A DNA stretch of 5,178 nt from the IMG/VR virus record IMGVR_UViG_2706794691_000005; one strand, written 5' to 3'. The notes under the pieces are model-generated. The model did no database searches, was not told where the DNA came from, and saw only the letters and a program-made list of their open reading frames with translations. The stretch comes from a virus. Its lineage: Duplodnaviria; Heunggongvirae; Uroviricota; Caudoviricetes. Below, in pieces: positions 1,612-4,778 of the stretch. A program made the position numbers and the translations under genes. How positions within the stretch are numbered: position 1 is the stretch's first letter; each line of letters begins with the position of its first letter.

Positions 1612-1854
1612 ATGACTTTTACCTCTGAACAATTGCGTAAACACGCGCAGGAAATGTTGCGACAGGCGGAACAACTGGAAAAAACAGGTGTAACAAAAGA
1701 TGCCATTCGTCGGGATATGGTGCCAGCGCTCAGGGAACTGATGCAGGCGAAACATCGCGCACAAAAAGCGGTGGATGAGCTCGTTGATTGTGTGGCAGAG
1801 CTGGAAACCAAAGTTGGAAAGTTTGAAAAAATGGTGCAGGAGGTGCTGCGCTGA
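1612..1854 (+). CDS. Hypothetical small coiled-coil protein (80 aa from ATG 1612; alternative TTG start at 1597)
   Basis: ORF MTFTSEQLRKHAQEMLRQAEQLEKTGVTKDAIRRDMVPALRELMQAKHRAQKAVDELVDCVAELETKVGKFEKMVQEVLR, helical with heptad-like spacing. Sits in the nin-region position between helicase and rusA. Its stop overlaps the rusA start (ATGA at 1852-1856). GGAG at 1585-1588 would serve the TTG 1597 start; ATG 1612 has no obvious SD and may be coupled to the helicase stop. Confidence 0.5.
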   Translation: MTFTSEQLRKHAQEMLRQAEQLEKTGVTKDAIRRDMVPALRELMQAKHRAQKAVDELVDCVAELETKVGKFEKMVQEVLR

Positions 1855-2225
1855 TGCGCCATGAGTTTATTTTACCTTATCCGCCGACGGTGAATACTTA
1901 CTGGCGACGTCGTGGCAGCACATATTTTGTATCAAAAGTTGGTGAGCGTTATCGCCGTGATGTGACGCTAATTGTTCGCCAGCAGCGGCTGAAATTAAAC
2001 CTGTCCGGAAGGCTGGCGATAAAGATTATTGCAGAGCCACCGGATAAGCGCCGTCGTGACCTGGACAATATCCTGAAAGCACCACTGGATGCGCTGACGC
2101 ATGCCGGACTACTCATAGACGACGAGCAGTTTGATGAAATCAATATTGTGCGCGGTCAGCTCGTTCCTGGTGGGCGACTGGGCGTGAAGATTTATGAAAT
2201 CACAGGTGATAACGATGGCGCGTGA
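1854..2225 (+). CDS. rusA: Crossover junction endodeoxyribonuclease RusA (Holliday junction resolvase)
   Basis: 123 aa. [17 protein letters not shown]...[31 protein letters not shown]...[11 protein letters not shown] matches the RusA pattern as I recall it (PWPPSNNRYY...[23 protein letters not shown]...DDAQV...KGGRLELTITEM). Strong RBS AGGAGG at 1838-1843, 10 nt before the ATG. Confidence 0.85.
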
Positions 2226-2601
2226 TATTCAGCAGGTTATGGAACGGTGGGGGGCTTGGGCTGCAAACACTCATGAAGATGTATCCTGGGCGTCGATCGC
2301 TGCTGGTTTTAAAGGGTTAATTCCGTCGAAAGTGAAATCACGCCCTCAGTGTTCTGATGATGATGCAATGATAATTTGTGGCTGTATGGCCCGGTTGAAC
2401 AAGAAAAATCAGGATTTGCACGATTTGCTGGTGGATTATTACGTAGGTGGAATGACTTTTATGAGTCTGGCACGGAAACATGGGTGTTCGGATACCTGTA
2501 TTGGCAAGCGCCTGCAGAAAGCGGAAGGGGTTATTGATGGCATGTTGATGATGCTTGATATCCGGCTGGAGATGGACAGATACGTAGAACGAATTATGTA
2601 G
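2215..2601 (+). CDS. Late-gene antitermination protein Q (small Q21/QuuD-like family)
   Basis: 128 aa. [121 protein letters not shown] closely resembles the DLP12 QuuD-type Q protein as I remember it. RBS AGGTGA about 7 nt upstream. Overlaps the rusA 3' end by 11 nt. Followed immediately by a promoter and terminator in the canonical PR'/tR' arrangement. Confidence 0.8.
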
Positions 2602-2605
2602 GTGC

Positions 2606-2635
2606 TTGACCAGACACATTGTCCGGGGCTATATT
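2606..2635 (+). promoter_or_regulatory. Candidate late promoter PR' (sigma70 -35/-10) with Q-utilisation region downstream
   Basis: TTGACC at 2606-2611, 18-bp spacer, TATATT at 2630-2635, starting 5 nt after the Q stop codon. The predicted start (about 2642) is followed by a perfect 6-bp hairpin CGCCAG-caaaat-CTGGCG (2643-2660). Confidence 0.5.
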
Positions 2636-2696
2636 CCTCACGCGCCAGCAAAATCTGGCGTCGGGATTGGAACCCCGGATAGAGACCGCGACAGAC

Positions 2697-2720
2697 ACAC
2701 GCCGCGAGCGTGTTTTTTAT
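2697..2720 (+). terminator. Intrinsic terminator tR' ending the short PR' leader transcript
   Basis: Stem ACACGC (2697-2702) / GCGTGT (2708-2713), loop CGCGA, followed by a T6 run (2713-2718). Predicted leader RNA about 75-77 nt. Confidence 0.6.
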
Positions 2721-2846
2721 TGTCGTATGCACGCGCACATCTGAATTATGGTGGGGCGCATGGGGGAGCTGAAAAGCTCGCCGGTCGGTTTCCCGGTAGT
2801 TCCAACCCTGTGCGTCTCACCACCCGATGATTGGAACCTGACGGTG

Positions 2847-2875: not shown

Positions 2876-2910
2876 TCCCCGCGGTGCTCAAAACACCTCG
2901 AAAGCGGTAT

Positions 2911-2938
2911 CCACACCCGATAGCCATGTGGTTTTTTT
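2911..2938 (+). terminator. Candidate intrinsic terminator/attenuator (weak stem, strong U-tract)
   Basis: CCACA (2911-2915) pairs with TGTGG (2927-2931) around an 11-nt loop, followed by T7 (2932-2938). Lies about 35 nt downstream of the predicted start of the 2847 promoter and 144 nt upstream of the ORF6N start codon. Confidence 0.3.
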
Positions 2939-3081
2939 GTGTCCAGAATTCTTGGTTTATGACCGGGTGTGCGGCTAATACAATACCAGCAATGGAAATA
3001 CGCCCGCCGACTTTCGACGGTTTTGAGCGCCCGGTCACCCTCTCAAAAGGGGTAAATCAAAATATTCGAAAGGACATGTCT

Positions 3082-3645
3082 ATGAATCGCACGTCTATTG
3101 AAAAACTCCCGTCACTTACGCATAACCATCTTCCTGTCATGACAACAGAGCTGCTGGCTGATTTGTACGGAACAGAGCGCCAGCGTTTGACAAACAATTT
3201 CAATCGAAACAAAGAACGGTTTATAGAAGGTAAACATTTTTTCCTGATAGAAGGTGATGCGTTACGAGAGTTGAAGAACGAAAACTCTTTAAGAGTTTCT
3301 GTGAAAATTGCCCGTAACGTTCGCTCCCTCATCCTCTGGACAGAACGTGGCGCAGCCCGTCACGCCAAAATGCTCGAAACCGATCAGGCGTGGGAAGTGT
3401 TCGAAAAACTGGAAGACTGTTATTTCAACCAGAAACAGCCACCAGCGGCACAAAACACATCTATCGAAAATGATGGATGCGCATTACTGAGCCACTTCGA
3501 TAAACACGGTCAGGTTGAGTTCACGGAAAAGGTACCCGCCGATGCGATGGTATGTACTCTGGAACGGTTTAAATTTTATCTGGAGCAACACGGGTGGATC
3601 GTTGCCCGTAAAGAGCAACTGGTGGAGCGGTTGATGCGGTTTTAA
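3082..3645 (+). CDS. ORF6N / KilA-N-like DNA-binding domain protein (phage antirepressor-like), C-terminal half of unknown function
   Basis: 187 aa from ATG 3082, with RBS AAAGGA at 3069-3074 (7-nt spacing). The N-terminal half (LPVMTTELLADLYGTERQRLTNNFNRNKERFIEGKHFFLIEGDALRELKN...LWTERGAARHAKMLETDQAWEVFEKLEDCYF) fits the ORF6N/KilA-N pattern seen in phage regulatory and antirepressor proteins. The C-terminal roughly 70 aa I cannot assign. The six-frame ORF extends upstream to 2884, but that stretch crosses a U-tract hairpin and has no RBS. Confidence 0.7.
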   Translation: MNRTSIEKLPSLTHNHLPVMTTELLADLYGTERQRLTNNFNRNKERFIEGKHFFLIEGDALRELKNENSLRVSVKIARNVRSLILWTERGAARHAKMLETDQAWEVFEKLEDCYFNQKQPPAAQNTSIENDGCALLSHFDKHGQVEFTEKVPADAMVCTLERFKFYLEQHGWIVARKEQLVERLMRF

Positions 3646-3720: not shown

Positions 3721-3747
3721 AAACCCGCCGATGAGCGGGTTTTTTTA
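3721..3747 (+). terminator. Intrinsic terminator downstream of the ORF6N gene
   Basis: Stem AACCCGC (3722-3728) / GCGGGTT (3735-3741), loop CGATGA, then T-run 3740-3747. Confidence 0.6.
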
Positions 3748-3796
3748 TACCTGAAAAACGGCACAGGACGTTAAACGTGCTGGTGGTCAGATGAGT

Positions 3797-3825
3797 TTGC
3801 AGATGTGATGACATATGGTTATTAT
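3797..3825 (+). promoter_or_regulatory. Candidate sigma70 promoter for the tRNA array
   Basis: TTGCAG (3797-3802), 17-bp spacer, TATTAT (3820-3825). Predicted start about 3832, 2-3 nt before the first tRNA. Confidence 0.45.
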
Positions 3826-3834
3826 TCTGCCTCC

Positions 3835-3911
3835 GGCCCTTTAGCTCAGTTGGTCAGAGCGAGCGACTCATAATCGCCAGGTCGCTGGTTCAAGTCCAGC
3901 AAGGGCCACCA
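3835..3911 (+). tRNA. tRNA-Ile (anticodon CAU, lysidine type, decodes AUA; ileX/ileZ-like), CCA encoded
   Basis: Cloverleaf read by eye: acceptor GGCCCTT/AAGGGCC, anticodon loop CTCATAA (CAT at 3869-3871), T-loop GGTTCAAGTCC. Strong resemblance to E. coli ileX as recalled. Confidence 0.85.
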
Positions 3912-3912
3912 A

Positions 3913-3989
3913 CCACCACTAGCTCATCCGGATAGAGCATCAACCTTCTAAGTTGACGGTGCGAGGTTCGAGTCCTCGGTGGTGGGCCA
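3913..3989 (+). tRNA. tRNA-Arg (anticodon UCU, decodes AGA), CCA encoded
   Basis: Acceptor CCACCAC/GTGGTGG, D-arm GCTC-ATCCGGATA-GAGC, anticodon stem TCAAC/GTTGA with loop CTTCTAA (TCT at 3947-3949), T-arm CGAGG-TTCGAGT-CCTCG. One-nt spacer from the preceding tRNA. Confidence 0.85.
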
Positions 3990-3991
3990 GC

Positions 3992-4067
<76 letters not shown>

Positions 4068-4070
4068 TAT

Positions 4071-4145
<75 letters not shown>

Positions 4146-4528: not shown

Positions 4529-4778
4529 NNNNNNNNNNNNNNNNNNNNNNNNNNNNNNNNNNNNNNNNNNNNNNNNNNNNNNNNNNNNNNNNNNNNNNNN
4601 NNNNNNNNNNNNNNNNNNNNNNNNNNNNNNNNNNNNNNNNNNNNNNNNNNNNNNNNNNNNNNNNNNNNNNNNNNNNNNNNNNNNNNNNNNNNNNNNNNNN
4701 NNNNNNNNNNNNNNNNNNNNNNNNNNNNNNNNNNNNNNNNNNNNNNNNNNNNNNNNNNNNNNNNNNNNNNNNNNNNNN
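4529..4778. other. Run of 250 N (assembly gap or masked sequence); hides the 5' end of the holin gene
   Basis: Uninterrupted n characters. A 71-codon S21-type holin ending at 4880 would start near 4665, inside this run. Confidence 0.99.

Follow-up and report, generated by a model that had tools for sequence, protein, structure and literature searches.

A probable AnrP-type antirepressor gene of a lambdoid prophage and its tandem C4 and sRNA-Xcc1 RNAs, a candidate double lock

Two described phage systems come closest to the locus analysed here. The immI region of phages P1 and P7 comprises the c4 antisense RNA, icd and the antirepressor gene ant (Citron and Schuster 1990, summarised in PMC12197685). 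The antisense RNA lies upstream of the antirepressor gene in the same orientation, its sites a' and b' are complementary to one pair of sites upstream and to another downstream at the ribosome-binding site, and variants differ in specificity, which in P1 and P7 gives heteroimmunity. In the Salmonella prophage Gifsy-1, the isrK-orf45-anrP locus follows a Q gene and holds the short RNA IsrK with the C4 target hairpins a1/b1, a C4-type RNA and the gene for a 187-amino-acid (aa) ORF6N protein, followed by a tRNA gene and the lysis genes (Hershko-Shalev et al. 2016, PMC4825925). Its promoter, PisrK, drives isrK-anrP transcription, and AnrP expression raises the mRNA of the antQ (early) operon and induces the prophage (PMC4825925). 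The present analysis concerns an open reading frame (ORF) at positions 3082-3645 of a stretch of 5,178 nucleotides (nt) from the IMG/VR virus record IMGVR_UViG_2706794691_000005. The stretch, called the window below, is a segment of a lambdoid prophage, and both C4 and a1b1 were detected in it.

A third RNA bears on this locus. The small RNA (sRNA) Xcc1 (Rfam RF02221) of Xanthomonas campestris has been described as an integron-encoded, trans-acting sRNA under HrpG/HrpX control, and the literature treats it as a virulence-linked trans sRNA of Xanthomonas and Xylella. One paper notes that in APSE phages Xcc1 precedes an ORF6N gene; in the literature searched, no paper links Xcc1 to C4. The window carries an Xcc1 RNA that scores above the Rfam gathering score and has the same consensus fold as the Xanthomonas RNA. 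It differs in context: in the window and in about 90 loci of viral contigs, Xcc1 stands directly before antirepressor-type genes, with target sites on both sides.

The gene is a routine member of the AnrP/ORF6N family, of the RNA-gated prophage antirepressor kind, and the reading of it as unknown cargo can therefore be retired. What appears to be new is the tandem arrangement of C4 and Xcc1, together with comparative evidence for Xcc1 as a C4-like immunity RNA directed against a Shine-Dalgarno (SD) sequence. We consider it quite probable that the ORF encodes an AnrP-type antirepressor, made of an ORF6N domain and a small enterobacterial C-terminal domain (C-domain), within a self-contained RNA-gated cassette of the P1 immI and Gifsy-1 isrK-anrP kind, with Q on one side and the tRNA and lysis genes on the other. 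The P1 C4 immunity RNA, Salmonella IsrK with its 'orf45' target and sRNA-Xcc1, which were described separately, are thereby joined in one scheme.

The N-terminal half of the protein matches ORF6N (PF10543) with 74.4 bits against a gathering score of 27.8 (E=8.8e-21, profile positions 5-86 of 86), as the first-pass annotation of the window had supposed from the sequence. A conserved helix at residues 98-117 travels with this domain, and the AlphaFold2 (AF2) model of the N-domain is confident (predicted local distance difference test, pLDDT, 80-90). No Pfam family besides ORF6N was found at E<=1, hence no Bro-N, ANT or P22_AR domain. Over its full length the protein matches PHROG 2379, 'anti-repressor' (E=4e-85), and it is colinear with Gifsy-1 STM2616/AnrP, also of 187 aa (49% identity over 184 residues, E=6e-58). 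A protein cluster from Shigella sonnei is 99% identical to it, and more than 100 clusters of full-length relatives (64-99% identity) occur in E. coli, Shigella, Salmonella and Citrobacter; a whole-protein scan of genome contigs returned only N-domain relatives in other genera and did not pick up Salmonella LT2. By this homology, which includes the C-domain, the protein is probably an AnrP-type prophage antirepressor, induction being known for AnrP itself; an antirepressor role, put forward earlier as one option, thus gains from a homologue that induces its prophage (PMC4825925).

Within the family, residues 1-31 and 86-187 are conserved, and the middle of the ORF6N domain (residues 32-85, window 3175-3336) is a hypervariable mosaic in which at least four sequence types occur. 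It may be a surface that sets specificity or a hot spot of recombination.

The C-terminal ~70 residues had been described as matching nothing that could be named, and this held: they gave no match in Pfam (E<=1), NCBIfam, PADLOC or PDB sequences. An AlphaFold model of both halves had been proposed alongside the Pfam search; the core of the C-domain is modelled with pLDDT 80-92, and fold-library searches with this confident model returned no match. The domain is nevertheless recurrent. PHROGs 25059, 995, 340 and 22471 match the C-terminus alone, and a HMMER scan of 1.84 billion representatives found only 11 relatives of the C-domain, all enterobacterial phage-type proteins apart from one repeat-protein false positive (P0128). 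Taken alone, the C-domain is related to that of AnrP (E=2e-7, 32% identity over 44 aa) and to a third variant, typified by a Salmonella locus (L007; E=1e-9). One protein (P0019) joins an AnrP-type N-domain to a C-domain of the window type, and the C-domain is also fused to Phage_pRha (Rha) and AntA N-domains. Predicted proteins of ~82 aa (e.g., P0126) consist of the C-domain and may be stand-alone genes or fragments; many of the C-domain matches are labelled partial. From these comparisons it is evident that the C-domain is a narrow, recurrent enterobacterial module that has been shuffled among N-domains.

The 480 nt upstream of the gene, treated as spacer in the first-pass annotation, form a regulatory RNA cassette of the P1 immI and Gifsy-1 isrK-anrP type. 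A scan with Rfam models found c4-a1b1, isrK, C4 and sRNA-Xcc1, all above their gathering scores. The cassette falls into two modules, the first with IsrK and C4, the second with Xcc1 and adjoining the gene.

The second module begins with a promoter-like site, P2, which ends 8 nt before position 2883, where sequence conservation between variants resumes. A -35/-10 pair stands 7-10 nt before the conserved leader in three otherwise unrelated variants (window/EC12, Nil2 and Salmonella). The leader consists of a hairpin at 2883-2897 with the loop site CUCAAAA (2887-2893), a second site, UCGAAAG (2898-2904), and an attenuator, in which a hairpin at 2911-2931 is followed by seven U residues at 2932-2938. 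The attenuator stem shows a compensatory change (CCACA/UGUGG vs CCGCG/UGCGG). Xcc1 comes next, with the site a' (CUUUCGA, 3011-3017) in the loop of its hairpin 2 and the site b' (UUUUGAG, 3021-3027) in the junction. These two sites are complementary to the two leader sites and to two SD-proximal sites, and all site sets match perfectly in the window; the SD-proximal complement of a' overlaps the SD sequence AGGA. Because P2 precedes both a hairpin-U7 attenuator and an antisense RNA complementary to the SD, the gene is predicted to be translationally gated. The first-pass annotation had noted the promoter at 2847 and suggested that the gene might be expressed independently from it. The promoter is upheld by its conserved position in the three variants; independent expression is too simple a description, since the attenuator and the anti-SD RNA intervene.

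The pairing is preserved while its sequence changes. In the window and in Salmonella, the leader and the SD-proximal region both read UCGAAAG and the Xcc1 loop reads CUUUCGA; the corresponding sequences are UCAGUAG and CUACUGA in EC12, and CAAGUAG and CUACUUG in Nil2. A fourth type, UUAGC(A)/UGCUAA, occurs in a Symbiopectobacterium locus. Two pattern scans of viral contigs yielded 98 unique segments with Xcc1, in which hairpin 2 takes 62 distinct sequences, and each loop was compared with its own flanks for an exact complement of at least 6 nt both in the 135 nt upstream and in the 50 nt downstream. Such complements accompany 44 of the 62 distinct loops, with 41 distinct cores, whereas loops permuted against the flanks of other loci (n=500) gave 3.3±1.8 and a maximum of 9. 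The permutation test was run on exact complements because a MAFFT alignment from the 3' half of Xcc1 to the start codon lost its register at the variable loop. The median distance from the end of the downstream site to the start codon is 9 nt in 42 other loci, and GAG or GGA comes directly after the site; it can therefore be described as a variable address joined to the 5' half of the SD. A run of at least five T residues lies between the leader site and Xcc1 in 37 of 43 other loci, and the junction site behaves like the loop in 28 of 49 variants. The C4 covariance model does not detect Xcc1 at E<=1.

The genes that follow Xcc1 are almost all of antirepressor type; they encode 94 unique proteins, among them 36 with ORF6N, 28 with P22_AR_N/C, 16 with Rha, four with Bro-N and three with KilA-N. 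Xcc1-ORF6N units are also found without IsrK and C4. This list of genes bears on what the encoded proteins do. The protein of the window might be a DNA-binding transcription regulator, either an activator or a Cro/Rha-like factor, that works through its ORF6N/KilA-N-like domain and not by binding a repressor, with the RNA gating unchanged. Iyer, Koonin and Aravind, in 2002, reportedly placed ORF6N within a KilA-N/Bro-N/Rha network of putative DNA-binding domains, and the fusion of the C-domain to Rha and AntA N-domains, as well as the confident model of the N-domain, is in keeping with such a role. The AnrP data are compatible with it too. However, the same RNA logic controls classical repressor-binding antirepressors, namely P1 Ant and the P22_AR-type proteins that follow Xcc1 in 28 of the 94 cases, and no operator or DNA target is evident. 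We therefore regard a DNA-binding regulator as unlikely and retain the antirepressor.

Taken together, sRNA-Xcc1 looks like an unrecognised relative, in function, of the P1 C4 immunity RNA. A broader proposal, which we hold to be moderately probable, is that Xcc1 RNAs are a second, widespread class of C4-like prophage 'immunity' RNAs and not primarily trans-acting virulence sRNAs. Each would be preceded by a terminated decoy leader and followed by a gene of antirepressor type (ORF6N, P22_AR, Rha, Bro-N or KilA-N). The hairpin-2 loop, composed of CU plus 5-6 variable nt, would mask the SD, and the junction would pair nearby. The dozens of loops would then serve as address codes that decide which resident prophage silences which incoming or co-resident antirepressor, and the window would represent a tandem C4 plus Xcc1 double lock. 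In this proposal, the choice of the repressor to be attacked may lie with the C-domain, as a module for repressor recognition or oligomerisation. Provided that the pairing is functional, the Xcc1 annotations found in many genomes mark switches of antirepressors, and the loop variants are a natural set of orthogonal RNA locks for prophage cross-talk and induction, including those of the Shiga toxin (Stx) phages of E. coli and Shigella.

The way in which such a lock might operate can be drawn by analogy with P1 C4 (PMC12197685) and IsrK (PMC4825925) from the observed homology, RNA family matches, complementarities with their covariation, and position of the target on the SD. In a lysogen, Xcc1, either in cis or supplied in trans by a resident prophage, would pair with the SD-proximal sites and block translation; this would keep the antirepressor off, as a sequence-specific 'immunity' of the P1 C4 kind. 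Release could follow one of two routes: the short leader RNA ending at 2938 might act as a decoy, or, in transcripts that read through, the leader sites might pair in cis. By either route Xcc1 would be sequestered and the SD left open, much as the short IsrK does for anrP in Gifsy-1. The protein would then inactivate or counteract a CI-type repressor and thereby derepress the early operon, possibly also those of co-resident prophages.

Several points weigh against this picture of a gated antirepressor. The cognate repressor gene lies outside the window. The data on AnrP in Gifsy-1 are induction and higher early-operon mRNA, not direct binding to a repressor (PMC4825925). The C-domain is only ~30% identical to that of AnrP, so its target specificity may differ, and it is without a fold match and hence without an assigned role. 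RNAduplex energies do not discriminate the proposed pairings from shuffled sequences for either Xcc1 or C4 (z=-1.1 for Xcc1 vs the ribosome-binding-site region), and the case for Xcc1 pairing thus rests on covariation. With regard to that covariation, related sequences share ancestry, and the permutation keeps composition and does not fully correct for phylogeny; the 41 different cores argue for many independent changes. Lastly, the C4 target site b2 of the window is without the hairpin, SD and ATG that come after b2 in Gifsy-1 anrP, Nil2 antA and PA2-type ant.

This last point concerns the first module, which is shared with Gifsy-1 down to its promoter and IsrK. The hexamers of the promoter, P1, are invariant in five related loci. 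The IsrK-like RNA is recognised by two overlapping models, isrK (RF01394, 2642-2718, 77.5 bits against a gathering score of 50) and c4-a1b1 (RF03163, 2629-2681, 50.1 bits). It carries the b1 site UUGGAAC (2667-2673) in the loop of its hairpin 2 and ends in a terminator with a stem at 2697-2713 and a U-run at 2713-2718. The C4 junction holds the b' site GUUCCAA (2799-2805), which pairs with b1, and b1, b' and b2 co-vary in three types (GGAAC, GGCGUC and UCGAAC). Homology to the regions downstream of b2 in Gifsy-1, Nil2 and PA2-type phages breaks at ~2852, so that module 1 is without an ORF of its own in the window; here it is a vestige, or else a tier of control upstream. In Gifsy-1, the base pairs between IsrK and 'orf45' were proved by compensatory mutants (PMC4825925). 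Alignment of the sites identifies these as the C4 b1-b' pairs, and the two orf45 AUGs of Gifsy-1 correspond to window positions 2748 and 2760, within C4. Given this identity of the pairs and the overlap of isrK with c4-a1b1, the published model of activation by IsrK and that of repression by P1 C4 seem to describe the same RNA trio.

A 76-codon ORF (2748-2978) starts at the AUGs equivalent to those of Gifsy-1 orf45, overlaps C4, b2, P2 and the leader, and has no Pfam match. Similar translations are fused onto database proteins (P0125 and P0131), and the translated C4-like region of P0131 matches Pfam Phage_ASH (PF10554). This family may be the translation of an RNA gene. A Salmonella mosaic (L004, 3630-3860) has an IsrK b1 and C4 b' of the GGAAC type and a downstream b2 of the GGCGUC type; its C4 would not match its own downstream site.

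The state of module 1 also raises the thought that the whole cassette is a decaying mosaic, with a permanently silent or non-functional gene and RNA elements that are relics. Module 1 has no ORF, mosaic joints lie at ~2852 and ~3432, frameshifted or truncated copies occur in relatives (L034, L057 and L038), and L004 has mismatched b' and b2 types. Yet many independent contigs carry the ORF intact and with 99-100% identity, the three site sets of Xcc1 are perfectly matched in the window, and the tandem arrangement is found again in E. coli, Shigella and Salmonella, where its specificities differ. Decay of the cassette is thus very improbable.

The position of the gene raises a further question, that of its dependence on Q. 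The first-pass annotation had placed the gene in the slot between Q and the holin gene, bracketed by terminators. Both the slot and the terminators on either side were recovered, together with a further terminator at 2911-2938 that it did not list. It had also suggested late cargo expressed through Q, or an anti-defence factor. Such a cargo gene (moron) would be expressed mainly by read-through from the late promoter and would have a host-directed, anti-defence or superinfection role unrelated to repressor control. In many E. coli and Salmonella prophages, relatives occupy the same interval from Q to the lysis genes as the gene does here, and the order Q, IsrK, C4, ORF6N gene is found in Gifsy-1 and in common relatives from the same two hosts. 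A search for pR'/qut between Q and the holin gene led to no assignment, the candidates being the sites P1 and P2, a weak site (3796-3825) and two terminators (3721 and 4404), and modification of P1 or P2 by Q is therefore conceivable; the search was restricted by runs of N that cover 1079-1361 and 4529-4778. With regard to anti-defence, the ORF6N domain matches candidate defence models of PADLOC (PDC-S05) weakly, with E ~1e-7, and no other evidence for such a role was found.

The distribution of the cassette points the other way. Firstly, homologues are not confined to the Q-to-lysis slot: a full-length Salmonella relative (P0106) is found in the nin region, with a different Q downstream of it, and N-domain relatives with the same RNA modules and promoters lie in the nin region of the Stx phage Nil2 and adjoin int in PA2-type Stx2a phages. 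Secondly, the same P1 promoter stands downstream of Q genes from three unrelated families (PF06530, DUF1133 and, in Gifsy-1, a Q82-like Q). On these two grounds, the cassette can be considered autonomous. Thirdly, PisrK alone drives anrP in Gifsy-1 (PMC4825925), and two terminators and the anti-SD RNA stand between the promoters and the ORF. Read-through by Q is possible and is not required, and late cargo as the nature of the gene is, in our estimate, quite improbable.

A lead from phage Phi24B (24B_1/d_ant) was set aside as a different locus, between lom and vb_24B_43 with the ant gene after R; Phi24B Ant is a P22-Ant-type protein.

Against this background, the differences from the described systems can be specified. 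In Gifsy-1, the interval between C4 and the gene is ~55 nt, with a hairpin and the SD, whereas the window has an extra module of ~255 nt (P2, leader, attenuator and Xcc1). The C-domain is a divergent variant and the Q family is not the same. In addition, isrJ directly follows anrP in Gifsy-1 (L031, 32813-33480), and the window is without a downstream isrJ. In contrast to P1 and P7, b2 of C4 does not cover the ribosome-binding site of the gene, the SD-covering RNA of the window being Xcc1. An icd-like coupled ORF is absent from the window, the setting is a lambdoid prophage and not P1, and by Pfam the antirepressor has ORF6N without Bro-N/ANT, the P1 Ant sequence itself not having been compared.

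A further close parallel is found in Stx phages: antB of Nil2 and 2851 (Stx2c) and ant of the PA2 type (Stx2a) share the leader DNA, the ORF6N N-domain and the RNA modules (79-95% DNA identity; ~66% protein identity over residues 1-124). DNA identity to the antB-type genes stops at ~3432, and these proteins differ in their C-terminal domains (226-aa and 222-aa forms) and in lying in the nin region or beside int, not after Q. The immI region of P22 (antisense RNA sar, and ant) and the CI RNA of P4 with seqA/seqC are likewise small phage RNAs that silence antirepressor or replication genes by pairing with a leader or ribosome-binding site. However, sar is read from the opposite strand, P4 CI acts by transcription termination and not by SD masking, and neither is related in sequence to the RNAs of the window.

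Gifsy-type antirepressors can be controlled in another way: GfoA and GfhA are reportedly under LexA control, a finding credited to Lemire and colleagues in 2011. The promoter of the window differs in having no conserved LexA box. The sole candidate (2838-2853) has one mismatch and is not conserved in EC12, and the window holds five such sites vs 1.8 expected; LexA control of the gene was accordingly rejected.

The ORF at 3082-3645 is real. The SD sequence AGGA (3071-3074) lies 7 nt before the ATG, and its relatives are mostly 184-188 aa long and start at the same residue. Longer in-frame starts at GTG 2884 and ATG 2992 overlap Xcc1 and were ruled out because an in-frame TAG stands directly 5' of the equivalent ATG in the EC12 and Nil2 variants. 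The features of the window are collected in Table 1.

Table 1. Features of the window, numbered from its first nucleotide.
Feature	Position	Strand	Evidence or remarks
RusA gene	1854-2225		
Late antiterminator Q gene	2194-2601	+	PF06530 Phage_antitermQ, E=2.7e-52; neighbour upstream of the cassette
Promoter P1 (PisrK-like)	2606-2635	+	TTGACC, 18-nt spacer, TATATT; consensus scan 10/12
IsrK-like short RNA	2629-2718	+	C4 target hairpins a1/b1 plus intrinsic terminator
Terminator-like hairpin upstream	2697-2718	+	Terminator scan
C4-type antisense RNA	2744-2827	+	Rfam RF01695, 71 bits (gathering score 45)
C4 target site b2 (UUGGAAC)	2831-2837	+	Alignment, just after C4
Promoter-like site P2	2847-2875	+	TTGACA, 17-nt spacer, TACATT; scan 10/12
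Predicted leader or decoy RNA of module 2	2883-2938	+	Conserved in alignments
sRNA-Xcc1 family RNA	2961-3044	+	Rfam RF02221, 77.4 bits (gathering score 53), full model 1-87
Downstream Xcc1 target CUCAAAA	3042-3048	+	Exact complement of b'
Downstream Xcc1 target UCGAAAG	3066-3072	+	Exact complement of a'
AnrP-like antirepressor gene	3082-3645	+	187 codons plus TAA
ORF6N domain	3118-3372	+	Residues 13-97; Pfam PF10543
C-terminal domain	3469-3642	+	Residues ~130-187: beta-hairpin, helix, GWIV strand, helix; AF2
Intrinsic terminator after the ORF	3721-3746	+	Terminator scan: 8-bp stem plus U-run
Four tRNA genes (Met-CAT, Arg-TCT, Thr-TGT, Gly-TCC)	3835-4145	+	ARAGORN; Rfam tRNA

The genes of the window run in the order DnaB-like helicase, small ORF, RusA, Q, AnrP-like ORF, four tRNAs, P21-type holin and lysozyme. 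Because of the two runs of N, the helicase gene is partly hidden, and the holin gene and the region upstream of it are hidden for the most part. In Gifsy-1, isrI overlaps a small annotated 'hypothetical protein' (STM2615.1n), and in relatives from E. coli and Salmonella the same small ORF is annotated behind the ORF6N gene (L001, 7273-7470; L007, 4890-5078).

The tRNA cluster sits between the terminator of the antirepressor gene and the lysis genes, and the weak promoter-like site at 3796-3825 stands before it. Relatives have three tRNAs at this position, and Gifsy-1 has one tRNA-Arg. Between the tRNA cluster and the holin gene, related prophages carry the sRNA STnc100 of ~200 nt (L164, 5686-5894; L168, 5685-5884; L039; L052), and the corresponding region of the window is partly masked by N (4529-4778). 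Judged by its size and place, STnc100 could be the short pR'-tR' transcript. In one of these prophages (L164), an AsxR match adjoins STnc100.

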